A stretch of 64,000 nt of DNA from Candidatus Pacearchaeota archaeon. GTDB lineage: Archaea; Nanobdellota; Nanobdellia; Pacearchaeales; GW2011-AR1. Every line of letters starts with the position of its first letter. Position 1 is the stretch's first letter. Location: assembly GCA_041649755.1 (NCBI GenBank), contig JBAZMK010000004.1:19766-83765 (forward strand). Direction: 5' to 3'. The translations under genes were made by a program, and so were the position numbers. Shown here piece after piece: positions 35,272 to 59,933 of this stretch. Under the pieces are notes generated by a model, which saw only the letters and a program-made list of their open reading frames with translations, ran no database searches and had not been told where the DNA came from.

Positions 35272-35315
35272 TTGGTGTTAGTTAGAAATAAAAACTCCTA
35301 TTTCTACACATTATT

Positions 35316-36224: not shown

Positions 36225-36258
36225 AAAGACTTATCTAAGAGAAATTACTTATCTATTT

Positions 36259-36996: not shown

Positions 36997-37091
36997 ACAT
37001 ATATTCGCTAACCCGACTTTTTAAAGCTTTGTTTATCCCTATAAAAAACAAGTCCAGTAAACTTTTTATACACCTTTAAATATGGTAATCT

Positions 37092-43945: not shown

Positions 43946-44750
43946 AGAGTGTTCTTAATAAAGCATATAGAATAAAAGCCATTAAAAAGGCCGGAACGAA
44001 TGGCAGGCCTTCTTTTATTTTAACTTTTTTCTTTTTGCTGAGTAATCTTACTTCTTCTTTACTCAGTCCCTCCCAAGAGTAGTTTATGACTTTTTTACCT
44101 ATTCTCTCTTTGTCAGCAAGCCAGTCTCCTTCTCTTAGGTCTTTTCCAGAAATTGTTTTCGTCATAGAGATATTTTCTAATCCTTTTGCGAATATGTAAA
44201 GCAGGGGAGAGATAAAAATAATTATAGAGAGTAGTTTAAAAATTAAAGAATTGCTTAGGAAATAAAATGCTACACTAATTATAGGGATTGCTAAAAGAAT
44301 TTTTTTGTGTTTTTTGATACCTTTTTTTATCTCTTTGTTTACTTTTTCTCTGTTTTTTATGTAAAGTATTGAGGAGTAGATTGTTCCGTAAATAGAACCA
44401 GAGACCATTAGAAATAAAATAAATATCCCAATATTTGTTGCACTCTCTATGAATTCCACTCCGATAAAAAAAGCACTCATTGCGAAAAGAAGTCCTGCGT
44501 CTCCTCCACCGAAAACTCTTCCATAATAAAAAATATTCATTATGACGAACATTATCGCTATTATGAATCCTGTGAGGAGTATTATTTCTGGGTTTTTTTC
44601 ATAGAGGGCTTTGTAGAATACATAAGAGAGGCTGATTAGGATTAAAAGTAAATTAAGCCAGTTGTCCACTTCTCTTCTTTTTAAATCCTGAAATGTTGCA
44701 ACCAAAATACCAATTAGAAAAAGCCAGAAGAGAAAGGTCAGTTCAATCAT
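43938..44750 (-). CDS. A24-family prepilin/preflagellin aspartyl peptidase
   Basis: First catalytic Asp context TFQDLKRREVDNWL, second in GGGDAGLLFAM; polytopic; extra C-terminal soluble domain. Terminal gene of the pilin array. Confidence 0.8.
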   Translation of the reverse strand: MIELTFLFWLFLIGILVATFQDLKRREVDNWLNLLLILISLSYVFYKALYEKNPEIILLTGFIIAIMFVIMNIFYYGRVFGGGDAGLLFAMSAFFIGVEFIESATNIGIFILFLMVSGSIYGTIYSSILYIKNREKVNKEIKKGIKKHKKILLAIPIISVAFYFLSNSLIFKLLSIIIFISPLLYIFAKGLENISMTKTISGKDLREGDWLADKERIGKKVINYSWEGLSKEEVRLLSKKKKVKIKEGLPFVPAFLMAFILYALLRTLFN

Positions 44751-44874
44751 TTTTTTTACCTTTTTCTGTTACATTTTGTGATCTAAACTTTCCGCCTTTT
44801 TTGTAACCTCTGGCTATTCTTTTTCTTTTCAAATCTTTCTTTGTTCTCCTTCTGTCTACACCACCATAATCCAT
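44743..44874 (-). CDS. Possible 43-aa highly basic micro-protein (not in ORF track)
   Basis: Own translation: MDYGGVDRRRTKKDLKRKRIARGYKKGGKFRSQNVTEKGKKND. Its ATG overlaps the stop of the upstream gene (TAATG) and its 3' end overlaps the first 8 nt of the peptidase gene, so it fills the only gap between them. Confidence 0.3.
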   Translation of the reverse strand: MDYGGVDRRRTKKDLKRKRIARGYKKGGKFRSQNVTEKGKKND

Positions 44875-45425
44875 TATTTTTCTCCTATGATAAATTTATT
44901 TTCTTTGAAACTTATTAAATATGTCTTACTTGTTGTGAAAGAAACTTCCACCGGGAAGTTTATTTTGTTTTCTTTCTTCGCGTTTAAATATTTTCTCTTT
45001 TCTAATTTTGCGCGATTAAGAATGATTGTTTTTTCTTTTTCGTTGTATTCTGCAGAGTAAATACTTTTAATGAAGTCTTCTTCGTTTGCTCTTGCTTCAT
45101 TTTCGTATATATAATCTTTGAATAAAAATTCTTTCATTTGCTCTTCCGACTTTATCTTTTTTATGAGTTCATTTGTGAATTGTTGTGTGAAGGTATCACT
45201 TATTTCAAATGTATTTTTAGTTTCTTTTAATGTTTCTAAAATTATTTCTTTTTCTCTTATTTCAAAAAGTTCTAAATCGTCTCTTAGTTCTAAAATAGTA
45301 TTTGGCGAGACAAGAGAACTACGAGCCTCTGATTGCTGGACAAAGTAGGTGTAGATAATAAAGGCGCATAAGAAACCCATAAAAACTACAAGATAGATTT
45401 CAAAGAATTGTCCTTTATTTTTCAT
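44874..45425 (-). CDS. Pilin-like protein (class III signal: MKNKGQ-FFEIYLVVFMGFL)
   Basis: Short basic leader ending KGQ, then a hydrophobic helix; overlaps the upstream gene by 11 nt. Confidence 0.55.
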   Translation of the reverse strand: MKNKGQFFEIYLVVFMGFLCAFIIYTYFVQQSEARSSLVSPNTILELRDDLELFEIREKEIILETLKETKNTFEISDTFTQQFTNELIKKIKSEEQMKEFLFKDYIYENEARANEEDFIKSIYSAEYNEKEKTIILNRAKLEKRKYLNAKKENKINFPVEVSFTTSKTYLISFKENKFIIGEK

Positions 45426-45690
45426 AGTTAGCCTCCTTTATCGCGTTTTCTAATGAAAATCCTTTGTTTATGAAGAATCTTATTTTTGTAAGACCGAGAT
45501 ATTTAATCATATATTCTTGTATATTGTCAAGGTCTAAGTCGGCAGAGGTATAAATTTTTAGTCCCGCGTTTGAATTATCAATTTCTTTTATTGTAGAGGA
45601 ACTTATCACAAAAATTAGTAAGATAATTACTATGGCAATTGTTGCGATGAACAGTGTGAAAGTTTTTCCAATAACTGCCTTATTATTCAT
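45415..45690 (-). CDS. Pilin-like protein (MNNKA-VIGKTFTLFIATIAIVIILLIF)
   Basis: Leader and hydrophobic helix similar to the next gene (KKAVMGETVF); overlapping gene boundaries. Confidence 0.5.
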   Translation of the reverse strand: MNNKAVIGKTFTLFIATIAIVIILLIFVISSSTIKEIDNSNAGLKIYTSADLDLDNIQEYMIKYLGLTKIRFFINKGFSLENAIKEANYEK

Positions 45691-46171
45691 TTACTAAAAC
45701 CTCCACTTTCATTATTATTTCTTCTCCGTTATTCTTGTTATATAAGGGGTATTCTGAAAGATAGTATCCTGGGGCGTATTTTTCTATTGATTTGACGTTT
45801 TCTTTTTGTTTTTCATAGAGGTCTTTTACCCACATTGCTCCGTCGTCTCCCTGATAGACGCTTTTTATGATGTTGCCAGAGTTATCCAAAAAATTTACTT
45901 TGACGAAGAACCTTTCTATTTCTTTTTCTTCATATCCGCAAAAGGACAGGACTTTTCTTTCTTCAACTTCTTCAAAGTTTTTTTCTTCTAATGTGAAGCA
46001 ATCTGCTATCTGGCGAGTCATGATTAAGGCTTCAGCAGGTCTTACTAAAATATAATGTGAATAAAAAACAGAGGAAACGCCTAGAACTGCTAGGGCGATG
46101 AGAGTTATTAAAATGAGGCGATACATCATGAAGACTGTTTCACCCATCACGGCTTTTTTATTTGACTTCAT
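45683..46171 (-). CDS. Pilin-like protein (MKSNKKA-VMGETVFMMYRLILITLIALAVL)
   Basis: Basic leader plus hydrophobic helix; 4-nt overlap with the upstream gene. Confidence 0.5.
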   Translation of the reverse strand: MKSNKKAVMGETVFMMYRLILITLIALAVLGVSSVFYSHYILVRPAEALIMTRQIADCFTLEEKNFEEVEERKVLSFCGYEEKEIERFFVKVNFLDNSGNIIKSVYQGDDGAMWVKDLYEKQKENVKSIEKYAPGYYLSEYPLYNKNNGEEIIMKVEVLVNE

Positions 46172-46518
46172 TCTATTTTTATGATGAATTTATTTGGAGT
46201 TTCTTCTATGTTAACAGAATATTTTGTGAAATAAGGATAGCCGTTAAAAGAAGTCAGACCTTCAATTTCTATATAGATTCTTCCGTCTTTTAATTCTATT
46301 TTCCGAATTATCCCATTTATGTTATCCTTAGATATTTCTATGTTTGTATAGGGGATTGCAGAGTCTATTAGTAAGGCTGTTTGTTTTTCTAAGACCTGCT
46401 GACGAACCCCTCTTGCATTAATCTTTTCTGAGGTCGCCATGAAGAAAATTGCTAAAATTAATCCGGCTAATATGATATGGATTATAACTTCGTGCATAAT
46501 CTCAGCTCTTTTTTTCAT
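46168..46518 (-). CDS. Pilin-like protein (MKKRA-EIMHEVIIHIILAGLILAIFF)
   Basis: Leader KKRA followed by E....E and a hydrophobic helix; same signature as the 47482 and 47376 genes. Confidence 0.55.
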   Translation of the reverse strand: MKKRAEIMHEVIIHIILAGLILAIFFMATSEKINARGVRQQVLEKQTALLIDSAIPYTNIEISKDNINGIIRKIELKDGRIYIEIEGLTSFNGYPYFTKYSVNIEETPNKFIIKIE

Positions 46519-46552
46519 GTTTTAATAAATAGAGTAGCGTTAATAAAATTAT

Positions 46553-47356
46553 CTAAGCAGGGATTGTAAGGAATTCACAATCCAATTCATTAATTTTGTC
46601 TTTTGGTATAAGCAAGATATATTTGTATTCTTTATCTTCCTCTCCAATTAACCTTGAAAGATAGTTAATTATGTTTTCCCCTAAAATTCCTTTAAGTAAA
46701 CTTATTACTCTTGCGGTTTTTCCAGTTACATAGACTGCCATAAGGTCATTGTCATTAGGATAGAATTTTACTTCATTGTCAACTGCTACAAAGTTCTCGG
46801 GGAGTTCTCCTTCTTCTGATTTTAGATAAAGGGGGAGGTAAGAATTGTAAACATTTCCTGAGTTTTTTTCTTTGCTTGTGCGATAATATTTTGCGAAGCT
46901 TTCTATTGAAAAATCGTTTTCGTTGTAATTTTCTCTTGATTTAGGAGTGTAACTAATTCTTGCAAAAACCATACAGTAAGAGTTTCCTGATAAGAATTTT
47001 TTTGGCACAATATCAAATTCTCCTTCTCCAAATAGATTCCAACCAGCGTAGAGGGTGTCCGAAATTTTTTTATAAACTTTCTCAGGCTTTGCGGTATCTA
47101 TGGTTACAACTTCTGTTTTGCATTTTAAAGGAAAAGCGTCTTTCAAATCTGCTAGTGAAATGTCGCCAGATTTAAATTCGGGAGATATTGAACGGAGATA
47201 GATACTCTGCCTGCATTCCTGCCAGTTAAGTTCGTCCGAAGATATATATGAAAAGATGTAGTTAAAAGAGATAGACAGGACTAGAAGCCCTAGTATCAGA
47301 GAGATTATTATATAATATTTCCCTGAACCTTTTTTTTCCATTTTAGGATTAAACAA
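46553..47356 (-). CDS. Pilin-like / N-terminally anchored protein (..MEKKG-SGKYYIIISLILGLLVLSI)
   Basis: KKG leader and hydrophobic helix, 267 aa with a Cys-containing globular part. Confidence 0.45.
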   Translation of the reverse strand: MFNPKMEKKGSGKYYIIISLILGLLVLSISFNYIFSYISSDELNWQECRQSIYLRSISPEFKSGDISLADLKDAFPLKCKTEVVTIDTAKPEKVYKKISDTLYAGWNLFGEGEFDIVPKKFLSGNSYCMVFARISYTPKSRENYNENDFSIESFAKYYRTSKEKNSGNVYNSYLPLYLKSEEGELPENFVAVDNEVKFYPNDNDLMAVYVTGKTARVISLLKGILGENIINYLSRLIGEEDKEYKYILLIPKDKINELDCEFLTIPA

Positions 47357-47375
47357 AAAGGATTAATAAAAGTAT

Positions 47376-47498
47376 CTAAGCAAGGTTACCTACAATTTTG
47401 TATACAGAAAAACTAACAGCTGTTAAGAGGGCTATGTAGAGAATCCACTTTATTATCTCTTCGGAAGTTATGTGGGCTTTTTTATTCTTGTATGACAT
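47376..47498 (-). CDS. 40-aa mini-pilin-like ORF (not in ORF track)
   Basis: Own translation: MSYKNKKAHITSEEIIKWILYIALLTAVSFSVYKIVGNLA. The leader NKKA-HITSEEII mirrors NKKA-ELTTHEIL of the upstream gene and KKRA-EIMHEVII of 46168-46518. It overlaps the 3' end of the 161-aa gene by 17 nt. Confidence 0.45.
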   Translation of the reverse strand: MSYKNKKAHITSEEIIKWILYIALLTAVSFSVYKIVGNLA

Positions 47499-47967
47499 GG
47501 TAAAAATTTTCACTAGGTAATTTAATTATTCTTACTTCTTCGTTTAATCCTAAATGGAACTGGTTGTATTGTTCATCTTTTTTTAGGGGGTATTTTAGAT
47601 TCTCGCAGTAGTTGCAAAAGGTTTCTTGGTCTTTTGTATAACATAGACAGATATGGTTTGAGTTTTCTCCTATGGAAAAGAATTCTTGAGAGTCTTTTTC
47701 GTAAGAGATTGTTGTTCCAAAATATATTAAGAAGTAATTTACTTCTTTTTCCGGCTGCCAAATTTTGAAGATTCCTGTTCCGCCTTTTTCGGCAGTTTCA
47801 ACAGACTCCTTAAACGAATTAAAATAAGACTCGGCGGTTTTTTCTTCAACATTAAATTTTGGTGAGATTAGGTTGTATAATAAAATTGCGACAACTGTTA
47901 TTCCTGCTATTGCTAAGATTAGTTCTAAGATTTCATGAGTGGTTAATTCTGCTTTTTTATTTAACAT
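47482..47967 (-). CDS. Pilin-like protein (MLNKKA-ELTTHEILELILAIAGITVVAILL)
   Basis: Basic leader plus hydrophobic helix; Cys-containing C-domain; 7-nt overlap with the upstream gene. Confidence 0.55.
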   Translation of the reverse strand: MLNKKAELTTHEILELILAIAGITVVAILLYNLISPKFNVEEKTAESYFNSFKESVETAEKGGTGIFKIWQPEKEVNYFLIYFGTTISYEKDSQEFFSIGENSNHICLCYTKDQETFCNYCENLKYPLKKDEQYNQFHLGLNEEVRIIKLPSENFYHVIQE

Positions 47968-49187
47968 CTTTTCTTTAGATAGTCATATACTAAATTTAAT
48001 TTTTTAATGTCCTCCCATTCTTCATCATTTATAGACATAAATTCATCATATTCAGATATAGTGAATCCGCCATTGGAGTTTTCTTTTACTAAGTGCAATT
48101 CCCCGTCATAATAAAGACCGAACTTTTCTTCTGCCGTTTCAAAATAAAATATTTGGTATTGATATTTGCCTATTATAGATTTGATAATCTTGTAGTCTAA
48201 ATTTTTGCCATCAAAATAAATGAGGACGCTGTTTGGGTTTTCTTTTAGTAAATTAATTCCATCTTTTTGTCTTGTTAAGTTTCTGTCCCATTCATTCAGT
48301 TTTCTAATAATCCATATTCTAAATTCTTCTGCGCTTTCTGTTGGTTTTGGAGCGAGAAATCCCCCTCCAGATTTTCCAAGTTCTTCTGAGAGTGGTTTTT
48401 TCCATCCGTCATTTTCTCCGTTTTCTTCTAATTTGTATCTCCAAGAAACTTTGTTTCCATTTATGAAAGAGTTTTCTAAGTCTTCTAAGATTCCGCTTTC
48501 AGGATTTGTTGTATACCTTCCGTAGAATAAAGTCCATTTTTCTCCATCCCATCTATAAGTCTTGTCCGGGCTCCAAATTTTGAACTCTAGATAATTATTC
48601 GGTAAAAATCCTAAGATGTCTTGCAACTTGTTGTAATCTTTTATCTTATAGAGAGACTCGTAGTCTTCATCACTTCCTATTCCTAATGCTCCGTTAAATG
48701 AAGTTATTAGTGTCTTGTAAGCTTCCCTTTCTTTTTCAACTTTTGTTAAGTCTTCTAAAGGGATAATGTTTTCATCTTCACAGAATTCTTTTTGGTCTTT
48801 TGTTTTTAGCAAGAATTTGCAATCTACCTTGTCTCTTTTAAATGTCCTTTCTCCTAATGCTAATCTGAAAGAATTCATTTTTATAGTGTTACCAATCGGT
48901 TCCTCCAGACTTATATTACATTCTGTTTTGCAGAGGGTTAAGAGTCCCGCTCCAATATCTTCTATGTTTGTTCCCCCATAGATACATTCTGTTTCATAAG
49001 GGTCATCCGTTCCAGCGAGTTTATTTAAAAGTATTAAAACTTCGTCGAATTTCCCCCCAGTTTTTTCCAATAAAGGTACTAGTTGTCCACTAATAAGACC
49101 TGAAATAATTAAGATTATAATTATAATAACAAGAATTAAAGAGAATACTTTTCCAAAAGTCCAGTCAATAGAACTTTTTTTTTGCAT
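47961..49187 (-). CDS. Large N-terminally anchored pilus-associated protein (tip/adhesin candidate)
   Basis: MQKKSSIDWTFGKVFSLILVIIIIILIISGL, then a 370-aa Cys/W-rich ectodomain. Its ATG overlaps the stop of the 48-aa ORF (TAATG). Confidence 0.5.
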   Translation of the reverse strand: MQKKSSIDWTFGKVFSLILVIIIIILIISGLISGQLVPLLEKTGGKFDEVLILLNKLAGTDDPYETECIYGGTNIEDIGAGLLTLCKTECNISLEEPIGNTIKMNSFRLALGERTFKRDKVDCKFLLKTKDQKEFCEDENIIPLEDLTKVEKEREAYKTLITSFNGALGIGSDEDYESLYKIKDYNKLQDILGFLPNNYLEFKIWSPDKTYRWDGEKWTLFYGRYTTNPESGILEDLENSFINGNKVSWRYKLEENGENDGWKKPLSEELGKSGGGFLAPKPTESAEEFRIWIIRKLNEWDRNLTRQKDGINLLKENPNSVLIYFDGKNLDYKIIKSIIGKYQYQIFYFETAEEKFGLYYDGELHLVKENSNGGFTISEYDEFMSINDEEWEDIKKLNLVYDYLKKRC

Positions 49188-49333
49188 TATTTTCCAAACC
49201 TCATTAAGTTTCTTATAGCTTCTAAGACTTCACTCCCTTTTCCGCTAAGAAGGAAGATAACTCCAAAAATGAGAACTACTAATATAATCACCGCAATAAT
49301 AATTTTACCTATTTCACTTGTCGCCTCTGTCAT
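49187..49333 (-). CDS. 48-aa single-helix membrane micro-protein (not in ORF track)
   Basis: Own codon-by-codon translation: MTEATSEIGKIIIAVIILVVLIFGVIFLLSGKGSEVLEAIRNLMRFGK. It fills the gap between the 117-aa pilin and the 408-aa gene, and its stop overlaps the next ATG. Confidence 0.4.
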   Translation of the reverse strand: MTEATSEIGKIIIAVIILVVLIFGVIFLLSGKGSEVLEAIRNLMRFGK

Positions 49334-49376
49334 ATACTAAATATAAAATAGAACTTAATAAAGATTTTGGAGGGGA

Positions 49377-49730
49377 TTAACAGTTAAACTTATTGCACGG
49401 ACTTGCTACTCCTGCAGGAATCTTCTTACCTTGGTCTCCAGTTACTAGCTCATTACAGGTTGTTGTGATTGCATCGTCTTTTTCATTGAAAACTACGCTT
49501 CTTTCTTGTGTGCAGAAGGCATAACTATTTCCTTGTTCACAAGCTAAGACGCAGGCAGTCCTAATTGTGTCAACGTTAACTTTTCCTCCGCCGAGACCAG
49601 TTACTCTCTGCCATAGGTTCCCCCAACCAGTGCTAAATCCGTAGATGAGGAATATCAAAACAACGACACCGAGAACGATTAGTATAATTGTTCCGAGAGT
49701 TAGTTCTTGTCCTTTTTTATCACCCTTCAT
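49377..49730 (-). CDS. Candidate major pilin (class III signal MKGDKKGQ-ELTLGTIILIVLGVVVLIFLIYGF)
   Basis: The KGQ leader resembles the archaeal class III signal (KGQ.S.E). Small (117 aa), six Cys in the globular head, first gene after the platform protein. Confidence 0.6.
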   Translation of the reverse strand: MKGDKKGQELTLGTIILIVLGVVVLIFLIYGFSTGWGNLWQRVTGLGGGKVNVDTIRTACVLACEQGNSYAFCTQERSVVFNEKDDAITTTCNELVTGDQGKKIPAGVASPCNKFNC

Positions 49731-49761
49731 ATTTTTCTTAATGCCTTCTTATTTATAAATG

Positions 49762-51918
49762 TTATGCTAATCCGGAGAGGGCTATAGAACCTATGAGGCT
49801 AAGTCCTACAATAGATAAGAGTGCCACGATGAAATAGAGGGTCATTGTTTTTTTGAGGTTTTTTCCAGTTTCCGCGGTGGTTTGGAGTTCGTCTTTTCCA
49901 GATTTTATTGTTACAAGGGTTGAAGTTAATATGAAGACGATTTCGATTAAATAGAAACCGATGACTATCTGGAGCCAGTAAGTTGGAATCATTAGAACAG
50001 GGTCAAAGAAGCCTAAAAGCCCTGTTATTCCTTCTGCACCGAGCAGTTCTTCGCTTCCCACGCCAGATTCCATCATCGCAGAGATTGAGCCAAGTATACT
50101 AGAAATCATTCCAGAGAGTCCGAGAATTATTCCGGAAAGGAGCGGAGCCAGGAAAGTCATATTGGATTTCATGTCCGAAGTTATTTCTGCTAGTAAATCG
50201 TTTAGTCTGTCGTTAATTTTTCTGATGTTTTTTACGTAATCGCTTATAGACATTAAGCTTCTTGCGGCGACATTTAGACCTTTTTTCACAGATTCTACTA
50301 AAATCTTCATTGAAGTTGCGATGATTTGAGAAGGATAGAAAATTATAGCTCCTCTTCGCGGGTCGAATAGTGCTCTTTCAAGATTCATTCCGAGTTGTTG
50401 TATATTTTCATTTACAATTTTGAAGAAGCCTTCAGTGGAAGTTCCTTTAGTTGATTCGCTTACTTTTGAGAAGGCGATTTCTGCGGGGAGTCCATCACCC
50501 AGTCGGTTTCCTAACTGGAACAGGGAGGAAGTAAATTCTTTTTCTACGTTTTTGTATTCTTCTCTTGATTTTATTAGTTCTTTTGTCTTTGTTTTGAACG
50601 CCACAATGAATATTATGGCTATAGATATTGGAATAAAAAGACTTAGAATTAGTGATAGGGTTCCTGAGGGTCCGTATAAAACTCCGTTAGGTCCCACAAT
50701 TCCAAAAATTCCAGAAGAGCCCATAAATCCAAGACCTATTTGTTCCCAAGTGTAATCTCTTGCTAACCCAAGCCATATTGGCAGGTTTGTGTAACGCCAG
50801 AAGAAAGGGATAAGTCCGAGAAGTAAAAAAGGCAGACCTAAGATGAAACCTGTAAAATAGGGCTTGTTGCTTTTATATTGGGAGTATAATGGATTTTTTT
50901 CAAGAAGAGTTGCTTCCCCGTATCCACCAGGTCTTTTCATTAAGACTCCCCAAGTAAGATATAGAACCATAAAAGGGATAATTAAGTTGAAAATTACAAA
51001 TAAGTGATACCATTTTATTGAGCCCCCCATCATCGTTGAGGCTAAGGGTAGAATTGCTAGTGCGAGTGTTGGAAGAACAATCCCCAGCATGTAGATATTG
51101 GTAAGTGGGGAGCGGACTTCGTGGGTGTATTTGAGCATTTTGTCATAAACTCCATCGAGTATTACCTGCAATGATTTTTCTAAGATATTTATTCTTCTAA
51201 GTTCGTCAGGTTCGTAAAGGCTGGATTCAACAAGATGAAGAGATTCAATAAATTCCATACTGTAATCTTTCCATCCAAGAAGATAATTGTCCAGACTTTC
51301 TTTTAATGTGGAGAATCTTCCAATTTCTACGTCCCAAAAGATTTTTTTAAAATCCAGAGAAAGTGGTGGCTGGAGGTGGTCAGAGGCAAATGAAATGGCC
51401 TTTTCAAAGTTTGAGGTATGTTTCATATAGATTACTATATACAAAATTGCTGGAACCATTTGACTGCTTGCTTTGAGACGCCATTTCATTGCGAGTCTTT
51501 CGGGAGTTTTTGAAGAGTAAAAGAAAAGGAAGACTGCAAGGATGAAAACTAGAAATAAAAACATAAAAGAGAATGTTTCTGTAATCATCCAAATTGCAGT
51601 AAAAAATAGAGCTCCGCCGAATAAAATGAGAAATAATATAACGGTGGACAGAACGAGCACTTCTGAAGGAGTTATATTTAAATGAGCTATTTCAATTGCT
51701 TTTGAGATTCTATTTTTGTCTTTTTCTCCAACTTTTATTCTGAATAAACTACCAAGACTTTTACACCATTTTTCATATTTTGTAAATTCAGGAGACATTT
51801 CTTCTCTGAATTTTTCATAACTTTTACTATATTTTTGTGATGAATTAGAGTCGTAACCCTTCATCTGTTTTTCTATTTTAGAACTATATCTTCTTAATAT
51901 TTCATCTGTGCTCGTCAT
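49762..51918 (-). CDS. Polytopic membrane platform protein, T2SS-F / FlaJ / TadC-like (two repeats)
   Basis: 718 aa with two units of cytoplasmic helical domain followed by TM helices. First unit: ERLAMKWRLKASSQMVPAILYIVIYMKHTSNFEKAISFASDHL..PLSLDFKKI..DVEIG. Second unit: FTSSLFQLGNRLGDGLPAEIAFSKVSEST...LERALFD. This matches the T2SS-F domain organisation. Assigned by pattern, not by search. Confidence 0.6.
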   Translation of the reverse strand: MTSTDEILRRYSSKIEKQMKGYDSNSSQKYSKSYEKFREEMSPEFTKYEKWCKSLGSLFRIKVGEKDKNRISKAIEIAHLNITPSEVLVLSTVILFLILFGGALFFTAIWMITETFSFMFLFLVFILAVFLFFYSSKTPERLAMKWRLKASSQMVPAILYIVIYMKHTSNFEKAISFASDHLQPPLSLDFKKIFWDVEIGRFSTLKESLDNYLLGWKDYSMEFIESLHLVESSLYEPDELRRINILEKSLQVILDGVYDKMLKYTHEVRSPLTNIYMLGIVLPTLALAILPLASTMMGGSIKWYHLFVIFNLIIPFMVLYLTWGVLMKRPGGYGEATLLEKNPLYSQYKSNKPYFTGFILGLPFLLLGLIPFFWRYTNLPIWLGLARDYTWEQIGLGFMGSSGIFGIVGPNGVLYGPSGTLSLILSLFIPISIAIIFIVAFKTKTKELIKSREEYKNVEKEFTSSLFQLGNRLGDGLPAEIAFSKVSESTKGTSTEGFFKIVNENIQQLGMNLERALFDPRRGAIIFYPSQIIATSMKILVESVKKGLNVAARSLMSISDYVKNIRKINDRLNDLLAEITSDMKSNMTFLAPLLSGIILGLSGMISSILGSISAMMESGVGSEELLGAEGITGLLGFFDPVLMIPTYWLQIVIGFYLIEIVFILTSTLVTIKSGKDELQTTAETGKNLKKTMTLYFIVALLSIVGLSLIGSIALSGLA

Positions 51919-52006
51919 TTTCCCCCAACCTCTAAGATATTATCAAAGGGGACTTTATATTTTTAATGTTAGTCATTAATTATGGGTTATTTGTTGTTAA
52001 TTATAT

Positions 52007-52933
52007 TTAAGGAATAATTCTAAATCTTAAAGTATATAAAATCCAAGATATTGAGAGTAGAATAATTACTCCAATAAGAAAGTATAAGCTTAAATCTATA
52101 GATACTTCTTTTCTTGTTTGGATGATTATCTCCTCAAACGAGCTCCTTAGCTCTTCGGGATTTTCTGCCATAAAGAACTGCCCGTTGCTGTTAAAACTTA
52201 TTGCCTTTAAAAAATCTTCATCTATCTTTGAAATCATATTAAGTCCTTCAACAACCCCCCCTTCTATGGTTCCGACTCCGATAGTGTTAACTATAATATT
52301 GTTCCTGTTAAGATATCTTATAACTTCAGGAGCTTCGACGACATTTAATTGTCCGTCGCTTATCAGAATCACCGCTTTCATCTGCCTGTTTTGGAAAATA
52401 TTGTTAGCAGTAATTAGGGCGTTATGGACGTTTGTTCCTGAGACTTCTCCAAAATTGATGGCGTCAATTGCAAGTTTTGTTTTTATTTTTGAGGTGTCAA
52501 GTATCTGATGAACTTTAGACTCTCCAGAAAAGCTTATAACTCCTATTTCGACACCCGTAGGGAGCATGTCAATGAACCTTTTTGCTTCTTCTTTGGCAAC
52601 AGATAATCTGTTTGGCAATAAGTCATGCGCAGACATACTCTGAGAGTTATCTATTAAGATTACATAAGAGAATGAACTTGTATCTGTTTCGACTGAGACT
52701 CCGATTCCTGCAAGTGCAAAGACAATTAGTATGAGGATTATTAAGTGAATATAAAGAAGAGCGAGATTCTTTGAAAAGAATTCAATTCCATAGAATCTTT
52801 GCATAGCCTTGAAGTTTGAAAACATTAGGGCTTTTTTTCTTGTGTAAATCATTCCATAAAAGTGGATAAAAATAAAAAAAGGGACGAGAAAAAGGAAGAC
52901 AAGTAATTGGGGATAAAGAAAATAGAATTCCAT
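52007..52933 (-). CDS. vWA-domain membrane protein (BatA-like)
   Basis: N-terminal two TM helices, MIDAS motif VILIDNSQSMS, a vWA fold pattern and a C-terminal TM. Confidence 0.8.
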   Translation of the reverse strand: MEFYFLYPQLLVFLFLVPFFIFIHFYGMIYTRKKALMFSNFKAMQRFYGIEFFSKNLALLYIHLIILILIVFALAGIGVSVETDTSSFSYVILIDNSQSMSAHDLLPNRLSVAKEEAKRFIDMLPTGVEIGVISFSGESKVHQILDTSKIKTKLAIDAINFGEVSGTNVHNALITANNIFQNRQMKAVILISDGQLNVVEAPEVIRYLNRNNIIVNTIGVGTIEGGVVEGLNMISKIDEDFLKAISFNSNGQFFMAENPEELRSSFEEIIIQTRKEVSIDLSLYFLIGVIILLSISWILYTLRFRIIP

Positions 52934-53847
52934 TATACTCTACCCCCCCGAGATCTTCCTTTTAGAAATTTTACTGTTGGTGGGACGAATTTTTCCTGTA
53001 TATTTAGTTCAAGCAAATCCGTCTTTGATCTTTTAAAGATATCCCTTATCAATTCTTTTTGTTTTGCTACACTTTCTTCATATTTTTTCGTTGTTATGCT
53101 GGGATCAAGAGTCATTTGTCTTTTTGAGTGTGGGTCCTGAATAGAAATCTGGAAGGGTAGGTCATCTAAAGATTCGTCTAATGAGTCTCTTATCATAATA
53201 GCCATAGTTTCGAATCTACTCCCAAGAATCTTGATAATAGTTTCATCTTCCTTTTTCAAATTTATAAAGTCAGATATTACTATGAAGATTGTGTAGGCAG
53301 ATTTGGTGAACTTAAGGACTTCCATTATTGTTTTCTCTAAATTAAACCCTCCACCATAATATTTTGGATCAGAAAGAAATTTTGTAAATAATAGAAACTG
53401 GTTTTTACTATTTGAAGGGTAGAGAATTTTTTTAGGGCCGTCATTAAACATAACTAATCCTATCTTGTCGCCAGAACTATAAATTAGGTGAGCGATTGAG
53501 GCAACTATCTCTGCCGAATATTCTGCCTTGAGTTTTTCTCCTGAGCCGAAGAGCATACCATTACTGACATCTACCAGAAAGTATATGCTCAAATCTCTTT
53601 CTTCAATGTATTTTTTTGCAAGAGTTTCGTTTGCCCTTAAGGTTGCTTTCCAATCAATCATAGAAGTATCGTCGCTTGGTTCAAAAGTTCTGTAACTATC
53701 AAATTCCAAACCTTTTCCTCTAAAAATCATATTATATAAAATTCTTTTAACTGGGAATTTCTGAAATGCTTTCTCAAATTCAGAGATGGCTCTTGCAAAG
53801 TTGATGTCAAATTTCTTTTTTTCGTTTAAGTTTTTTAGTGCTTCCAT
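52933..53847 (-). CDS. DUF58 family protein (MoxR-associated, vWA-like)
   Basis: FRGKGLEFDSYRTFEPSDDTSMIDWKATLR....AKKYIEERDLSIYFLVDVSNGM is the classic DUF58 signature; 1-nt overlap with the vWA gene. Confidence 0.85.
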   Translation of the reverse strand: MEALKNLNEKKKFDINFARAISEFEKAFQKFPVKRILYNMIFRGKGLEFDSYRTFEPSDDTSMIDWKATLRANETLAKKYIEERDLSIYFLVDVSNGMLFGSGEKLKAEYSAEIVASIAHLIYSSGDKIGLVMFNDGPKKILYPSNSKNQFLLFTKFLSDPKYYGGGFNLEKTIMEVLKFTKSAYTIFIVISDFINLKKEDETIIKILGSRFETMAIMIRDSLDESLDDLPFQISIQDPHSKRQMTLDPSITTKKYEESVAKQKELIRDIFKRSKTDLLELNIQEKFVPPTVKFLKGRSRGGRV

Positions 53848-53851
53848 TATT

Positions 53852-54820
53852 TTAAGGAGCCGTTACTTTTTGAAGAATATGTTTTATTACTTCGTCCGTT
53901 GTTATTTTTTCAGCTTCGGCTTCGTAATTTAGTATTATTCTATGTCTTAGAATAGGATAAACGACAGTTTTGACATCCTGAGGTATGACATATTTTCTTC
54001 CTTTCATCATAGCTTCTGCTTTTGATGCAATATAAAGGGAAATTGACGCTCTTGGGCTTGCACCGCAGGAAATGTATTTAGAGAATTCTTCGTCTTTTTT
54101 TCTTGTGTAGCCCACTATTTTTATAATATAATTTTTTATTGCTTCTGAGGCAAATATCTCTTTTGTTTTTTCTTGTAAAGCAATTATTTTTTTAGGGGAT
54201 AATATTCCATTTAAATCATAGTCTTCGAATTTTTTTGTTGTTACGTTGTTTTCTAGTATTTTCTTCTCCTCTTTTTCGTGAGGGTAGTTTACAATTAGCT
54301 TAAATAGAAACCTATCTACTTGTGCTTCCGGAAGGGAGTAGACTCCGCTTACTTCTAATGGGTTTTCAGTCGCCATTACGAAGAAGGGTTTGGGGAGTTC
54401 GTAAGTTTCTCTGGCGATTGTTACAGCTTTTTCCTGCATGGCTTCTAGAAGGGCAGATTGTGTTTTTGGCGGACTTCTGTTTATTTCATCAGCAATTACA
54501 AAATTAGAGAATATTGGTCCTTTTATTACTTCAAAGCCCTTTTTAGGTGTGTAGCTCATAATACCCGTTATATCTGTTGGAAGAAGGTCAACAGTAAACT
54601 GGATTCTTTTCATTTCACATCCAGTAACTTTTGCAAATGCTTTGACTAATAATGTTTTTGCGGTTCCAGGGACCCCTTCAACGAGAACGTGACCATCACA
54701 TAGGATAGCTCTTATGATTTCGTGAATGACTTCTTCTTGACCAACTACTACTTTTGATACTTCTTTTTTTATCTTTTCTACAATTTCCTTTACACTTTCT
54801 TCTTTCCTCTTTTTTTTCAT
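53852..54820 (-). CDS. MoxR-family AAA+ ATPase
   Basis: VVGQEEVIHEIIRAILCDGHVLVEGVPGTAKTLLVKAFAK, Walker B ADEINR.PPKTQSALLEAMQE, and a C-terminal lid. Confidence 0.9.
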   Translation of the reverse strand: MKKKRKEESVKEIVEKIKKEVSKVVVGQEEVIHEIIRAILCDGHVLVEGVPGTAKTLLVKAFAKVTGCEMKRIQFTVDLLPTDITGIMSYTPKKGFEVIKGPIFSNFVIADEINRSPPKTQSALLEAMQEKAVTIARETYELPKPFFVMATENPLEVSGVYSLPEAQVDRFLFKLIVNYPHEKEEKKILENNVTTKKFEDYDLNGILSPKKIIALQEKTKEIFASEAIKNYIIKIVGYTRKKDEEFSKYISCGASPRASISLYIASKAEAMMKGRKYVIPQDVKTVVYPILRHRIILNYEAEAEKITTDEVIKHILQKVTAP

Positions 54821-54829
54821 GTTTTTGTC

Positions 54830-57800
54830 TTATTTATTAAATCTTGTACGTTTATAAATGTAAATGATAAATCCGAGTAGAAGTACTGAGGCGGTTGCAA
54901 ATAAAACGTAATAAAAAATGTTGCTTATATAATCTTTTAGTTTGAATTTTACTTGTTCATTGGCTTTAATGGCGTCTTCACAGGCTGTAGCGATTTCAGT
55001 AGCCATAGTTAATGCGCTTTCTGAGTCTCCTTCTTCAAATTTTTTTCTTGCTTCTTTGATTAGTTCAGAAAGTTCAAGGCACTCTGGATTTTCTGAAATT
55101 AGTTTTTCCGTGAAAATAATTGTTTGTTCAGCTTCAGTGTCGTTAATTCTTCTTAGGTCTATAAAGAAGTCCCCCCAGTCTGAGAATTTTGGGGAGGTTA
55201 CATCAACATAGACTGTTGCTTTATATCTCCCTGTCTTTTGTGTATCTGCTAAGATTCTCATAGTCATATTTTGGGACTCTCCGATTTTTAGTTCGGGAAG
55301 ATAGATTGGTTCAATGAATACTTTTACATCTTCTGAGTAGACATTGTTAAATAAGACGATGTTTGTTACGTCAAGTCCTTTTAAGTCAATTTCACCTGTA
55401 TTTTCTAAGGTAAATGGGATTTCAATAGAGTCTTTTTCATAAATAATTATATCTTGTGGTACGATTATTCTTATTGAAAAGAGTTTTAGGAGGGTTGATG
55501 TACCGCCCGTGGCTGGTCTTTCTACTTCCTGAACCGAAGGGGTAGTGAATTCCACTTTAAATTGGTTGCTTATGTTGTTTGTTAGGGGTTCCCCTTCTGA
55601 ATTTAAATCTGTTGCATTAATGTAAAGCCATTCGCTTTTTATTGTGTTTGGTGCAGGAATTGTTAGAATCCATCCTTCTGAAACTGTTGAGAATGGCGAG
55701 GCGAGTGTGCTTGGTGTGCTGTTACTATGAATCGTGAAGTTAATTTCCTGTTCGTAATAAGGGTCTTCTTTGTCGTAGTCTAAAAAGTGTCCGTTTAGGT
55801 CAATTTCAAGGTTTTGGTTATAGTTTTTTTGATAGTAAGGACCTATGTTAGAAATGAAGAGTAGAGGGGCATTAGTGTGACTTATGTTTAATTTAAATGA
55901 AAAGTTAATCGCTATTGCTTCTTTTTGGCTTTCGTTTAATTGTTCTGTTGAAGGATATGCTTTTATTGTCAAGTTTTTTAAATTTCCATAGGTTTCGTCA
56001 AAATAGGTTTGAGTCCACGAATAGTTAAATTCGGTGGAGTTTCCAATGTTTTCAAAAGAGTCTATCATATAGAAATCTGTGTAGTTGCAGTTGGAATTGT
56101 CTAAGTAGCTACAAGTTATGTTATCTATCCAGAGTTCGTAAGTTAGGTTTCCCCCTAATGAATTATTGAAAGATAGTGTTAATTTTTTTTCTACGACTTC
56201 GGTGAAGTTAAAGACAGAGTTTTGCGAAGGAGATGTTAGATTGGCTATTCCATATATAGATAATTTAAAAATTTTCCAGTCTGTGTTTTCAGAAGTGTCG
56301 TTTACAGATATATTAAACAGCCATTCTCCTTCATAATCACTTAAGTTTGTTAAATTAATTATTCCGGTTGTTTCGTTGAAATTAGAAGTGTTTATGAAGT
56401 TTCCTCCCGTTGTTAGATTTGAAATTGAGAATGTTAAATTTCCATTTGGGGTGTCGTTTCCATCTTTTTCGTCTGTTGCATTTATATCTAAATATAAATT
56501 CTCGTAAATAGTGAGGGTCGCATTGTTTAGGCTTTCGTTTACAATAGAGGGGGGATAGTCAAATTCTGTTATGTTCAGATAGAAAAGCCTGTTTGTTTTT
56601 TCTCCAGAGAAATCTGTTATAGTGATGTTGACTGAATAATTCCCTACATTTTCGTATTGGGGAGTAAAGGTTGTGTTGTATATTGTCCTGTTGTAGAATC
56701 CTTCCAATTCTCTTGGAGATTGTTCAATTAAAAAAGAGATGTCTTCTGAGGTTAGAGGTGTTTGGGCAGGAGTTAGGTTAATTATATTAGTTGAAATGTT
56801 TAAAGTTTCATTGTAAGCACCTTCGTTTACTTTTGTTTCGCTTATTAAGAAGTCGTCGTCGTAAGTATATAGTCTCCAAAATATTGATTCTCCGTGCGGA
56901 ACGATTTGTGTGTTGTTTTCAGGTATTGCGTTTGTAGGAGGCTCAGAAAAGTCTGTATTGTTGTAAAGGGCACCGATTTGCGGAGCGGTGTTGTTGTTAG
57001 AAATATTTAAGATAATGTGGGTTGTATCCTCTAAATAACCATCGCTTGCAGTTATGTTGAAGTTCCAAATTCCGACATCTTGCTTCCATGGGGTGAAATT
57101 TATTATCCCGTCACTTGTCAGATTAAATCTTGGCGGGACTCCTGATGAATTTGAGAATGTTAAGGTGTCGTTATCATCATCTTTGACGTAGAAATTTTCT
57201 TCAGTAATAGTCGTATCAGTTAGATTTCGGTAAAAGTTAAATCCTTCTTCATCTGAGGTTCTACTAGTGTTTAGATCAAAAGCGTATTCACCCCCTTTCC
57301 AGTAAGGAGAGGTGTTGTTAGAGATTGTTATATTAAATAAGGTATAGGAAGAGGAGTCTTCTTTGTCAGTTGCACTTACATTAATTTCGTAATCTCCTGC
57401 TTCGGTTGAATTTAGTGTTATTTTTGCTCTTGAAATATTTGTTCCTGTAATTTGACCTAAGTCTTCAATGACTAAATTATCAAAAGTGTAATTTTCAGAT
57501 TCTATTGATGCAGTGTAGTTTAGGGTGAATTCTTCGTTGAAAAGGTTTTTGTCAGGAATTAATAAATCGTTGTCGGAGATGTTAAAGTAAATTGTTACCA
57601 ATTGGTTTATTGATATGTTTCTGTTTTCTATGCTTGTCAGAGACAGGGGGGAGTTTACAGAGCTTCTGTTTATGAATATGTCTATTTGTGATGAGCTTTC
57701 CTGTGAGTATTTGGTGTCTTCTACGCTGAAATTGATTGTCCAGTTTCCGACGTGGACTTTTTCCAGGGAGATGTTTATTGGTATAAAAAGGTAAAAGTCT

Positions 57801-58834
57801 GCTGCATTTGTTTCGTTTGAAGCGTAGAACCATCCCGAGTTGAAACTTCCTGAAGGGGCCGATGGATAATTTTTTAGTGTTGCAGTGCTTTCAATTGAAA
57901 GGCTGTCATTTTTCCCCTGTGTTTTTATTATGATGTTACAGGTTAGGTAGTCGTCATCTTCCGAAATTATTTTTTCGTCGCAGTCTGAGGTGTCTACACT
58001 TAGGGTAGATTGGATTATTAGAGAGGCGTTTTCGCAGGTTGTTTTGTTGTATTCGTAGTTTGAATCTTTATATGTTGGTAGTCCTGATTCTGGCAAAGTG
58101 TCGTTGATGCAGATTTGTACTGGGTAAACTCCGACGTCGTAATAGCCTATGTTTGTGAGGTTTATTAAAACGGACTGGTCTGAACCGCCATATTCGTTTG
58201 TTGTATCATAGGTGAAACTGCAGTTTGAAGCGTTTTTTCTTGGGCTCCATTCTGCCGGCTCGCAGTCGTCAAAAAAAGTGATATTTTGAAAAATTAAAGG
58301 GTAGTGTTCTTCTTCGTCTGTTCCTGATAATATAATATTGCCAGAGGTGTTTTCCTGGCTGTTTACTTCAAAAGAGTATGTTTCGTTGAAGCCTACTTCG
58401 GGGGCGTCGTTTGTTGCGTTAATTATGAAATTAAAGTATCTTGATTCTCCTCCTTCTGTACCTTGAACGAGGGCGTTAAGTGTAAAGTTTCCAGTTTCAT
58501 TATCATTTATCGAATTGATATTTAATAATCCTGATGTTGAATTTATAGAGTATGTATCGTTCCAGTTTAACCAGTAAAAGTCTGAGTGTTCTGGTCCAAG
58601 GGAGCCGTCTTCCCATTGGATATTAAGTATAGAAAAATAGCTAAAATTTTCTGTTTCAGTGAGATTTTTACTAAAGTTATATAAATTAAATTCATCTTCG
58701 TTGAAATATTTGGGCGTTTGATATGCATCATTCCAACTGACGGCGCTGACAAATACAATTATTCCTAATAAGATACATAAAAGAATGCTTTTAAAGTATT
58801 GTCTCTTAATTGTATTTGTTACACCTCTCTTCAT
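54830..58834 (-). CDS. Giant (1334 aa) N-x-S/T-rich surface adhesin with cadherin-like repeat junctions, a CARDB-like domain and a C-terminal TM anchor
   Basis: N-terminal signal/TM. Repeat junctions NATNDAPEV, ISNNNTAPQI, ISNNTSPYW and EFDYPPSI resemble cadherin-type D.ND.AP motifs. A CARDB-like segment starts near EIPFTLENTGEIDLKGLDV. The C-terminal TM is YYVLFATASVLLLGFIIYIY followed by KRTRFNK. Confidence 0.7.
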   Translation of the reverse strand: MKRGVTNTIKRQYFKSILLCILLGIIVFVSAVSWNDAYQTPKYFNEDEFNLYNFSKNLTETENFSYFSILNIQWEDGSLGPEHSDFYWLNWNDTYSINSTSGLLNINSINDNETGNFTLNALVQGTEGGESRYFNFIINATNDAPEVGFNETYSFEVNSQENTSGNIILSGTDEEEHYPLIFQNITFFDDCEPAEWSPRKNASNCSFTYDTTNEYGGSDQSVLINLTNIGYYDVGVYPVQICINDTLPESGLPTYKDSNYEYNKTTCENASLIIQSTLSVDTSDCDEKIISEDDDYLTCNIIIKTQGKNDSLSIESTATLKNYPSAPSGSFNSGWFYASNETNAADFYLFIPINISLEKVHVGNWTINFSVEDTKYSQESSSQIDIFINRSSVNSPLSLTSIENRNISINQLVTIYFNISDNDLLIPDKNLFNEEFTLNYTASIESENYTFDNLVIEDLGQITGTNISRAKITLNSTEAGDYEINVSATDKEDSSSYTLFNITISNNTSPYWKGGEYAFDLNTSRTSDEEGFNFYRNLTDTTITEENFYVKDDDNDTLTFSNSSGVPPRFNLTSDGIINFTPWKQDVGIWNFNITASDGYLEDTTHIILNISNNNTAPQIGALYNNTDFSEPPTNAIPENNTQIVPHGESIFWRLYTYDDDFLISETKVNEGAYNETLNISTNIINLTPAQTPLTSEDISFLIEQSPRELEGFYNRTIYNTTFTPQYENVGNYSVNITITDFSGEKTNRLFYLNITEFDYPPSIVNESLNNATLTIYENLYLDINATDEKDGNDTPNGNLTFSISNLTTGGNFINTSNFNETTGIINLTNLSDYEGEWLFNISVNDTSENTDWKIFKLSIYGIANLTSPSQNSVFNFTEVVEKKLTLSFNNSLGGNLTYELWIDNITCSYLDNSNCNYTDFYMIDSFENIGNSTEFNYSWTQTYFDETYGNLKNLTIKAYPSTEQLNESQKEAIAINFSFKLNISHTNAPLLFISNIGPYYQKNYNQNLEIDLNGHFLDYDKEDPYYEQEINFTIHSNSTPSTLASPFSTVSEGWILTIPAPNTIKSEWLYINATDLNSEGEPLTNNISNQFKVEFTTPSVQEVERPATGGTSTLLKLFSIRIIVPQDIIIYEKDSIEIPFTLENTGEIDLKGLDVTNIVLFNNVYSEDVKVFIEPIYLPELKIGESQNMTMRILADTQKTGRYKATVYVDVTSPKFSDWGDFFIDLRRINDTEAEQTIIFTEKLISENPECLELSELIKEARKKFEEGDSESALTMATEIATACEDAIKANEQVKFKLKDYISNIFYYVLFATASVLLLGFIIYIYKRTRFNK

Positions 58835-58871
58835 CTTATTTTATTACTATTTATCCTTATTAATCTTGTGT

Positions 58872-59933
58872 TTATAATCCTATTTTTTCAATTAAATTGT
58901 CTTTGTTAAAAACTTCTAAGTCTTTGTATTCTTGCCCTGTTCCGAGGAAATAAATAGGTTTTTTTGTGACGTGAGAGACAGAGATTGCTGTTCCGCCTTT
59001 TTCGTCTACATCAGCTTTAGAGAGTATTATTCCTGTTAAGTCTATTACTTCATTGAATGTTTTTGCCTGTTCTACTGCGTCGTTGCCTGTGATGGATTCT
59101 CCTACGAAGAATTTCATATCAGGTTTGTTTACTCTGACAACTTTTTCAATTTCTTTCATAAGGGAGTCTTTGTTTTGCATTCTCCCTGCTGTGTCGATTA
59201 AGACTATGTCAATATGGTGTTTTTTTGCGTAGGCGATTGCGTCAAATCCTACTGCGGCTGGGTCTGCTCCGTAGTCTTTTTTTATCAAAGGAACTTTAAG
59301 GTTGTCTGCATGTTGCTGAATTTGTTCAATTGAGGCGGCTCTGAAAGTGTCTGCTGCACAGAGACAGACAGATAGTTTGTTTTTTATTAAATAGTTAGCT
59401 AATTTAGCGATTGTTGTGGTTTTGCCTGAGCCATTTATTCCTGCGAATAGAATAACAAAAGGGGTTTTTTCTTTTAGTGATTCTTTGATTTCTTTTAAAA
59501 AGTCTGGGGGGTTTATGAGGGTTTCTTTTATAGAACTTTTAAGTTCCTTGCTTAGGTCAACTTCTTTTAAATTTTTACCAACTATTTTTTCTTTGAGAGA
59601 GGAACGGATAGAATCCACGACCTCATAAGCAGTGTTGTTTTGCAAAAGGATTAGTTCAAGTTCCTCAAATATTTTTTTAAATTCTTCTTCGCTTAGCTTT
59701 TTTTGAAAACGAGAGAAAAAAGACTTCTTTTCTTCTTTTTGTTCTTCTGGTTTAGTTTCTTCAATTATTGGTTTTTCTTTTGAGGTTATTTTGGGTTCTT
59801 TTTTGTCTACTTTTTTAGCTATTTTTTCTTTCTTGGGTGGTTTTTTCTCTATTTTTACAGGTTTTTCTACTTCCTGTGTTTCCTTAGTCTTACTTATCCA
59901 TTTTTTTAGCTTTTCTTTTAGTGAGCCGAACAT
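58872..59933 (-). CDS. ftsY: Signal recognition particle receptor FtsY
   Basis: Lys/Glu-rich A-region, then an NG domain: FAGINGSGKTTTIAKLA, DTAGR, SKADVDEKGG. Confidence 0.95.
   Translation of the reverse strand: MFGSLKEKLKKWISKTKETQEVEKPVKIEKKPPKKEKIAKKVDKKEPKITSKEKPIIEETKPEEQKEEKKSFFSRFQKKLSEEEFKKIFEELELILLQNNTAYEVVDSIRSSLKEKIVGKNLKEVDLSKELKSSIKETLINPPDFLKEIKESLKEKTPFVILFAGINGSGKTTTIAKLANYLIKNKLSVCLCAADTFRAASIEQIQQHADNLKVPLIKKDYGADPAAVGFDAIAYAKKHHIDIVLIDTAGRMQNKDSLMKEIEKVVRVNKPDMKFFVGESITGNDAVEQAKTFNEVIDLTGIILSKADVDEKGGTAISVSHVTKKPIYFLGTGQEYKDLEVFNKDNLIEKIGL

Follow-up and report, generated by a model that had tools for sequence, protein, structure and literature searches.

A conserved giant surface protein–MoxR–DUF58–vWA gene cassette and its probably fortuitous placement beside a type IV pilus-like operon in a Pacearchaeota archaeon

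We analyzed a 64-kb stretch of Candidatus Pacearchaeota archaeon DNA (contig JBAZMK010000004.1; "the window" denotes this whole stretch of 64,000 nucleotides) that carries a gene for a giant cadherin-like surface protein, followed by genes for a MoxR-type AAA+ ATPase, a DUF58 protein and a membrane protein with a von Willebrand factor A (vWA) domain, and then an operon of type IV pilus-like genes. Here the last three genes before the operon are called the triad, and the giant gene and triad together the cassette. The GC content of the window is low (~33%), a DNA polymerase D is encoded, and the closest protein relatives of the window proteins are all labelled Pacearchaeota, Woesearchaeota or Nanoarchaeota. 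From 59933 down to 43938 all real genes lie on the minus strand, and the plus-strand open reading frames (ORFs) in this interval are short antisense frames inside larger genes. The features are listed below with the basis of each assignment.

54830-58834, minus strand: giant surface protein of 1334 aa, first gene of the cassette (ORF call, orthologue alignment)
53852-54820, minus strand: MoxR-type AAA+ ATPase, MRP-like (ORF call, Pfam)
52933-53847, minus strand: DUF58 protein, vWA-like fold (ORF call, Pfam)
52007-52933, minus strand: BatA-like membrane vWA protein (ORF call, Pfam, transmembrane segments)
51919-52006, minus strand: 88-nt junction between the cassette and the pilus unit (read directly)
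51927-51967, minus strand: relic of an integrase gene plus the Shine-Dalgarno sequence GAGGT of the platform gene (alignment to relatives L010/L011)
49762-51918, minus strand: polytopic membrane protein of 718 aa, presumed pilus platform, first gene of the pilus operon (context)
43938-49730, minus strand: remainder of the pilus operon, with pilin-like genes whose N-termini are of class III type (ORF calls, Pfam)
43938-44750, minus strand: A24 prepilin peptidase, last gene of the pilus operon (PF01478)
58857-58864, minus strand: TATA-like box ATTAATAA upstream of the giant gene (read directly)
58872-59933, minus strand: FtsY (ORF call)

Read directly, the spacings are 9 nt between the giant and MoxR genes, 4 nt between the MoxR and DUF58 genes, a 1-nt overlap of the DUF58 and vWA genes (TAATG) and 88 nt between the vWA and platform genes. 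The genes, their common strand, these four spacings and the domain calls had all been given in the initial annotation of the window, and all hold by ORF calls, direct reading and Pfam. A 23.4-kb Logan contig, assembled separately from the same sample, is identical to positions 50800-53200, with no difference; because it spans the vWA–platform junction, this junction is not an artefact of one assembly.

Our comparisons revealed that the giant protein and the MoxR–DUF58–vWA triad are encoded as a conserved unit with close gene spacing. An alignment of vWA proteins, searched against one genome per species, gave 34 loci, all from DPANN metagenome-assembled genomes (MAGs). The order giant–MoxR–DUF58–vWA was found in all 30 species loci that have enough upstream DNA, which belong to Pacearchaeota and Woesearchaeota; the remaining 4 of the 34 are cut by contig ends, and one of these, L050, starts inside a moxR intein. 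Four vWA homologues with 55-71% identity (L013, L015, L016/17 and a JGI contig) all follow a gene for a protein of 1288-1342 aa and the MoxR and DUF58 genes. The reverse test started from the C-terminal module of the giant protein in metagenome contigs: 57 of 61 loci with at least 3 kb of downstream sequence carried the full triad, and on shorter contigs MoxR was seen in 13 of 14, as far as the contig reaches. In 24 of the 34 species loci no more than 12 nt separate the giant and MoxR genes, and the DUF58 and vWA genes mostly overlap by 1 nt. The flanks of the cassette vary among loci (FtsY, Toprim, an AbrB-like gene). The linkage of adhesin and triad noted in the initial annotation is thus borne out in both directions and by the tight junctions. 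About 20 species (e.g., L026-L031, L037-L039, L043-L051; L016:388-4140) have three further co-oriented genes before the giant gene, which encode a secreted protein of 358 aa, a secreted and weakly cadherin-like protein of 700-750 aa and an AbrB/MazE-like protein of 55-91 aa. In the loci with this longer cassette the AbrB/MazE-like gene abuts the giant gene; all three genes are missing from the clade of the window.

The giant protein is predicted from its sequence to have an N-terminal signal anchor and a C-terminal transmembrane (TM) helix. Its architecture comprises the signal anchor, ~8-9 cadherin-like/immunoglobulin (Ig)-like domains whose linkers carry conserved acidic motifs, a CARDB-like domain, a helical hairpin, the TM helix and a basic tail, and its ectodomain is acidic (188 D+E versus 67 K+R). 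A profile of 27 giant orthologues matched protocadherin-15 (E 2.4e-6), and the Pfam families Ig-like_KY, He_PIG and Big_9 matched 8-11 of the 27. The C-terminal piece scored 25.7 bits against CARDB (cut-off 22.7); the BatD family of Pfam gave no match to this piece even at E 5, and no TPR family rose above noise. An AlphaFold2 model of the last 340 residues (predicted local distance difference test [pLDDT] score of 84) contains two beta-sandwiches, a helical hairpin and a long helix that holds the TM segment, and a Foldseek search with this model returned generic Ig-like folds only. The orthologues, annotated as "hypothetical" in every source, align over their full length at 30-71% identity and are 1243-1393 aa long (about 1230-1390 in the species loci). 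Conservation is highest in the TM helix, the tail YKRxRFNK and a membrane-proximal module that includes NPECLEL and two invariant Cys; residues E1254 and E1257 are invariant acidic residues, and the Cys pair adjoins the membrane. The C-terminal module forms 873 clusters at the 50% identity level and nearly always ends proteins of ~1250-1450 aa. The giant protein contains 82 N-x-S/T sequons, or 6.15 per 100 aa, 2.8-fold the expectation from composition; none of the window's 40 other ORFs exceeds 2 per 100 aa. If the organism N-glycosylates its proteins, it would be by far the most sequon-rich candidate in the window. The adhesin traits claimed earlier (richness in sequons, cadherin-like and CARDB-like domains and a C-terminal anchor) stand on the sequon count, the protocadherin-15 profile match, the CARDB score and the TM helix.

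The MoxR protein matches AAA_3 with 193.4 bits (cut-off 27) and AAA_lid_2 with 73.7 bits (cut-off 22.7), has intact Walker A (GVPGTAKT) and Walker B (DEINR) motifs and has DUF58 and vWA genes as neighbors, as in MRP-type loci. The DUF58 protein scores 117.4 bits against PF01882 (cut-off 23.4). Neither has a TM or hydrophobic segment, and both are predicted to be cytoplasmic. The vWA protein (VWA_2, 66 bits; VWA, 56 bits) has TM helices at residues 11-29, 57-75 and 281-299 and a complete metal ion-dependent adhesion site (MIDAS), with D95, S97, S99, T167 and D193 invariant across 18 orthologues. Its vWA domain is predicted to face outward on the positive-inside count, as the short, nearly invariant loop between TM1 and TM2 holds six Lys/Arg; the domain of Borrelia BB0173, which has the same TM layout, was found to be periplasmic by experiment (PMC5700661). 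The NCBIfam matches of the window protein fall below their cut-offs (BatA, 58.7 vs. 380 bits; the best match, PRK13685, 96.4 vs. 432 bits), and we therefore call it BatA-like by architecture and not an equivalog. In the moxR gene of L050, a divergent Pacearchaeota MAG (L050:75-2213), the intein sits just past the Walker B region; it ends ...ISHN, and the extein resumes with TQSALLEAMQE.

The first gene of the neighboring operon encodes a 718-aa protein that is presumed to be a TadC/FlaJ-type pilus platform. This label comes from context: the profile match to Pfam T2SSF (PF00482) is weak (E 1.3), a profile search against PDB sequences gave no match, hhalign of the two halves of the protein found no internal repeat, and the AlphaFold2 model is poor (pLDDT 48), its input alignment being too uniform. 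The protein has >4000 homologues with up to 92% identity, some of which are named TadB by JGI. In relatives the platform gene always occurs with pilin-like genes and an A24 peptidase gene, and a gene for a T2SSE ATPase lies upstream in 4 of 5. The same string of pilin and A24 genes is present in L001, L004, L007, L009, L010 and L012, and the A24 prepilin peptidase of the window matches PF01478 with 36.7 bits (cut-off 26.5). The pilin-like proteins contain no N-x-S/T sequons, except for a 408-aa protein with 2, as against the 82 of the giant protein. In L007 (3127-9024) the T2SSE gene product is 1965 aa long and includes two inteins with LAGLIDADG endonuclease domains. Upstream of the platform gene, the relatives have the following arrangements.

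L009, platform 92% identical: the same order as in the window
L010/L011, platform 85% identical: a Xer-like integrase gene directly before the platform gene; no triad
L012, platform 80% identical: T2SSE ATPase gene, then integrase gene, then platform gene
L001, L004 and L007, platform 69-73% identical: T2SSE ATPase gene at 0.9-6.4 kb; no triad

Hence the order of triad and platform is shared only with the 92% relative. In the 34 species loci the 10 kb on either side of the triad contain no platform, A24 or T2SSE gene, and no triad lies near the platform in any of the 6 distinct platform neighborhoods at 69-85% identity. The gene order adhesin–MoxR–DUF58–vWA–platform–pilin of the initial annotation therefore holds among relatives from the adhesin to the vWA gene and breaks down between the vWA and platform genes, where only the 92% relative retains it.

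The 88-nt gap between the vWA and platform genes is a rearrangement scar, because the remnant of an integrase 3′ end lies in it. Aligned with the integrase 3′ end and the Shine-Dalgarno sequence that precede the platform gene in L010/L011, window positions 51967-51927 on the minus strand agree at 39 of 42 places. This 41-nt relic consists of the last 11 codons and the stop codon of a Xer-like integrase gene, plus GAGGT, and its frame reads IKNIKSPLIIS*, compared with IKNIKSPLDNI* in the integrase of the relatives. The gap in L009 is different, 63 nt long and without the relic; since the gap sequence differs even in this 92% relative, the vWA–platform junction is not under conservation. Retention of the relic as a pilus promoter was considered and left as speculation, the 92% relative having no relic. 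The integrase/platform boundary was thus a rearrangement point in the lineage of the window. A gene for a Xer-like tyrosine recombinase stands directly before the platform gene and co-oriented with it at L010:623-1433, L011:682-1488 and L012:5176-5679; the spacing is 0-9 nt in L011 and L012, and the recombinase gene is frameshifted in L010. Such a gene may make the integrase/platform boundary a recombination hot spot.

The ATPase of the pilus system lies elsewhere on the contig. The initial annotation described a pilus machinery without its own ATPase, and indeed tblastn found no T2SSE in the 64-kb window; however, an intact T2SSE gene (755 aa, PF00437) lies on the same 93-kb contig at window-equivalent positions -15463 to -13196 (L054:2071-4338), 63 kb from the platform gene. 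Its product is 78% identical to the L012 orthologue, which adjoins the platform in that relative. An integrase orthologue (70.5% identity; L054:318-1169) lies 0.9 kb from the T2SSE gene in opposite orientation. Both are 63-68 kb from the pilus unit and 13-17 kb to the left of window position 1, and at least two recombinase genes, a second integrase paralogue (from window position 319 leftwards) and a serine recombinase, intervene between T2SSE and the window. With T2SSE on the same contig, the pilus system is complete though scattered. The other side of the junction differs as well: in relatives the vWA gene is followed by a convergent ParA-type gene and then a class II aminoacyl-tRNA synthetase (aaRS) gene, and in the window these two genes are at 31553-33864, 18 kb away from the vWA gene. 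The ParA, class II aaRS, Lactamase_B, 271-aa and 417-aa genes at 31553-39157 keep the order that they have after the triad in relatives; this block is inverted and lies 13-20 kb from the triad, with glycogen/sugar genes (GDE, GHMP kinase) between. A single-inversion model was dropped because the orientations of T2SSE, ParA and aaRS in the window and L009 need more than one event.

The transcription signals were read from the DNA. The box ATTAATAA lies 23-30 nt before the ATG of the giant gene, and L009 and L013/L018, with a different gene upstream, retain the motif TTAATAAGG(A/T)T(A/T)AATA; ATTAATAA is a candidate promoter that would give a leaderless cassette transcript. The gap 51919-52006 contains no oligo-T run and no terminator-like hairpin; a sigma-70 promoter scan, which is not meaningful for an archaeon, was used for the hairpin result alone. 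RNA sequencing runs searched for the locus did not contain it. Within the relic the platform gene keeps its own Shine-Dalgarno sequence GAGGT and a AAAAATATAAA stretch, which could serve as its TATA box or promoter.

We favor the reading, with a probability of about 0.65, that two independent units stand side by side, the cassette at 52007-58834, whose triad acts on its own giant protein, and an ordinary type IV pilus-like operon at 43938-51918. We read the cassette as a minimal Bat-like envelope module that DPANN archaea of the Pacearchaeota/Woesearchaeota type have retained throughout, and its adjacency to the pilus genes as a matter of ordinary genome shuffling, a recent local rearrangement with a chance placement. 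Rearrangements in the common ancestor of the window genome and the 92% relative, with a breakpoint at the integrase/platform boundary, would have separated the pilus operon from its ATPase and brought it to its place downstream of the vWA gene. We hold the genomic part of this account (gene content, conservation of order, domains, the scar and the location of the ATPase) with high confidence. How the cassette works, including its topology and the client relationship, is a more tentative matter, for which the odds are somewhat short of even; it is drawn from the conserved order, the topology and known MoxR/vWA pairs. Such pairs include NorQ/NorD, RavA/ViaA and CbbQ/CbbO. A MoxR hexamer and a DUF58 adaptor would work in the cytoplasm and act on the three-helix BatA-like protein. 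The outward MIDAS vWA domain of this protein would bind the giant protein at an acidic site, most probably within the conserved module next to the membrane, and ATP hydrolysis would thus be harnessed to fold, anchor or assemble the giant protein or to switch its conformation. Candidates for contact points are, in the vWA protein, the nearly invariant loop on the cytoplasmic side and, in the giant protein, the TM helix and the basic tail. The giant protein itself could be either a host-cell adhesin or an envelope (S-layer-like) component.

Several observations weigh against this account. In 4 of the 75 metagenome loci no obvious triad follows the giant gene. In one locus (L086:4812-6833) a T2SSE gene, 75% identical to the query orthologue, lies ~1.1 kb past the triad behind the convergent ParA gene, and in two genomes the cassette and pilus units are 20 and 52 kb apart on one contig; because of these cases, loose regional proximity of the two units must be said to recur. 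Read-through from the vWA gene into the platform gene is possible, since the gap has no oligo-T run or hairpin. The MoxR and DUF58 proteins are predicted to be cytoplasmic and the vWA domain and the bulk of the giant protein to be outside, which leaves coupling across the membrane unexplained. The conserved order could reflect shared regulation with no physical interaction. Finally, the loop of the vWA protein has no sequon, and the pilins are likewise without any, apart from the 408-aa protein mentioned above.

A bolder version of the mechanism, built on an analogy with integrins, is improbable: the four proteins would form an ATP-driven, membrane-spanning "inside-out" adhesion switch. The cytoplasmic MoxR and DUF58 proteins would change the state of the outward MIDAS domain, which would lock or release the Ca-stiffened giant cadherin-like protein, allowing host-cell attachment and detachment on demand. 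If true, this would provide the first defined client and mechanism for the widespread MoxR–DUF58–BatA module.

The cassette resembles several known systems, and the statement that its linkage is not a described system has to be corrected, as published predictions already connect MoxR/vWA with archaeal pilus loci (PMC4858521) and with Ig-like surface proteins (PMC5898192). The core of the Bat operon (Borrelia BB0170-BB0176, Leptospira Bat) likewise encodes an MRP-type MoxR and a DUF58 protein, along with a BatA-like protein whose MIDAS vWA domain follows two TM helices and is itself followed by a third; an Ig-like membrane-anchored protein (BatD) is part of that operon as well, and the vWA domain there lies on the outer face of the cytoplasmic membrane (PMC5700661). 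In contrast, the cassette is archaeal and has four genes only, without BatB, BatC (TPR), BatD or BatE, and its Ig-like partner is a 1334-aa cadherin-like protein that is encoded first. In the PFNA cluster of bifidobacteria (pkb2-fn3-aaa-atp-duf58-tgm), MoxR has been proposed to fold the FN3 protein (PMC8430577). There too the gene for a large secreted FN3/Ig-like glycoprotein directly precedes an MRP-type MoxR gene and then DUF58, but the cassette, in another domain of life, has no Ser/Thr kinase or transglutaminase and ends with a BatA-like vWA gene.

Closer to home, Makarova, Galperin and Koonin in 2015 predicted an archaeal complex of a MoxR/GvpN ATPase, vWA and Ig-like S-layer-type proteins (PMC5898192). 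In that arCOG01314 (DUF4350) system, which is predicted to build or hold a surface complex, MoxR/vWA proteins are encoded with membrane-anchored, Ig-like surface proteins, as in the cassette. The cassette differs in that a Pfam scan of its proteins found no DUF4350, its vWA protein is BatA-like with no secreted Ig–vWA fusion, DUF58 is present, and the partner is a single giant cadherin-like family restricted to DPANN. Makarova et al. in 2016 described vWA and MoxR/GvpN pairs at thaumarchaeal type IV pilus loci and proposed them as regulators (PMC4858521). These pairs likewise put a MoxR-family ATPase and a vWA protein near archaeal type IV pilus loci; however, that link is conserved in a clade and involves ArnB-type vWA proteins (arCOG02900) and GvpN-like ATPases, whereas the adjacency in the window is a rearrangement of one lineage and its proteins are of the MRP/DUF58/BatA type. 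The moxR1-Rv1480-Rv1481 genes of Mycobacterium tuberculosis are a triad of the same type, and PRK13685 is the best NCBIfam match of the window vWA protein. In M. tuberculosis the secreted protein RipA is reported to need interaction with the chaperone MoxR1 for export (PMC4810496). The client there is a peptidoglycan hydrolase exported by twin-arginine translocation and encoded nearby, and no giant adhesin of the same operon.

One alternative is that these archaea use the giant protein as their S-layer or chief envelope component and that the cassette is a version of the secretion/membrane-remodelling complex predicted for archaea in 2015, with no adhesin system involved. The giant protein is single-copy, of conserved length (about 1230-1390 aa) and present in every species locus; it is sequon-rich, acidic and C-terminally anchored, two further secreted proteins are encoded upstream in most species, and MoxR and vWA proteins have been linked to Ig-like predicted S-layer proteins (PMC5898192). 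The absence of a DUF4350/arCOG01314 protein from the cassette (Pfam scan) and the cadherin-like repeats, which are more typical of adhesins, make us doubt this proposal.

The triad might instead be a general envelope or stress module, with the giant protein a co-regulated neighbor and not a client. Many bacteria have Bat/MRP modules but no giant adhesins, and the phenotypes reported for such modules relate to stress or the envelope (PMC3557215, PMC11834572, PMC11432383). This arrangement appears unlikely given that the order is kept in ~95% of loci in both directions while the giant proteins are only 30% identical and all flanks change, that the junctions are tight or overlapping, and that the giant protein is conserved in length as well as in its membrane-proximal module, TM helix and cytoplasmic tail.

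The initial annotation proposed a single surface-apparatus regulon of adhesin, triad and pilus genes, with the MoxR/vWA pair maturing or loading the filament too; this proposal is largely refuted by synteny, and we consider it very unlikely. In its favor, the genes all point the same way, the 88-nt gap contains no terminator, the 92% relative has the same order, T2SSE is close to the triad in L086, and published work associates vWA and MoxR/GvpN pairs with type IV pilus loci of thaumarchaea (PMC4858521). Nevertheless, pilus genes near the triad (0/34 species loci) and triads near the platform (0/6 neighborhoods at 69-85% identity) were not found, the junction is a scar with an integrase relic, the gap sequence is not kept even in the 92% relative, and the platform gene retains its own Shine-Dalgarno sequence and TATA-like stretch. 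A single apparatus of triad and pilus genes is thus not borne out. That MoxR replaced the missing secretion ATPase as the pilus motor, as the lack of T2SSE in the 64-kb window and the position of MoxR 2 kb upstream of the platform might suggest, is refuted by the intact 755-aa T2SSE orthologue on the same contig and is hardly conceivable in any case, MoxR and T2SSE being different ATPase classes and the same MoxR lying far from pilus genes in all other species.

For annotation, the locus illustrates that function read from the gene order of one genome can mislead: the apparent adhesin–chaperone–pilus super-operon is the product of a rearrangement, and the pilus system is a complete one of the kind usual in its lineage. 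The cassette is the DPANN form of a known, functionally unsolved type of system, with a specific candidate client. MoxR–DUF58–vWA modules occur very widely, and few of their substrates are known; because the module of Pacearchaeota-type archaea is bound to one family with conserved length, TM helix and tail, the giant protein family is a specific candidate for such a client.

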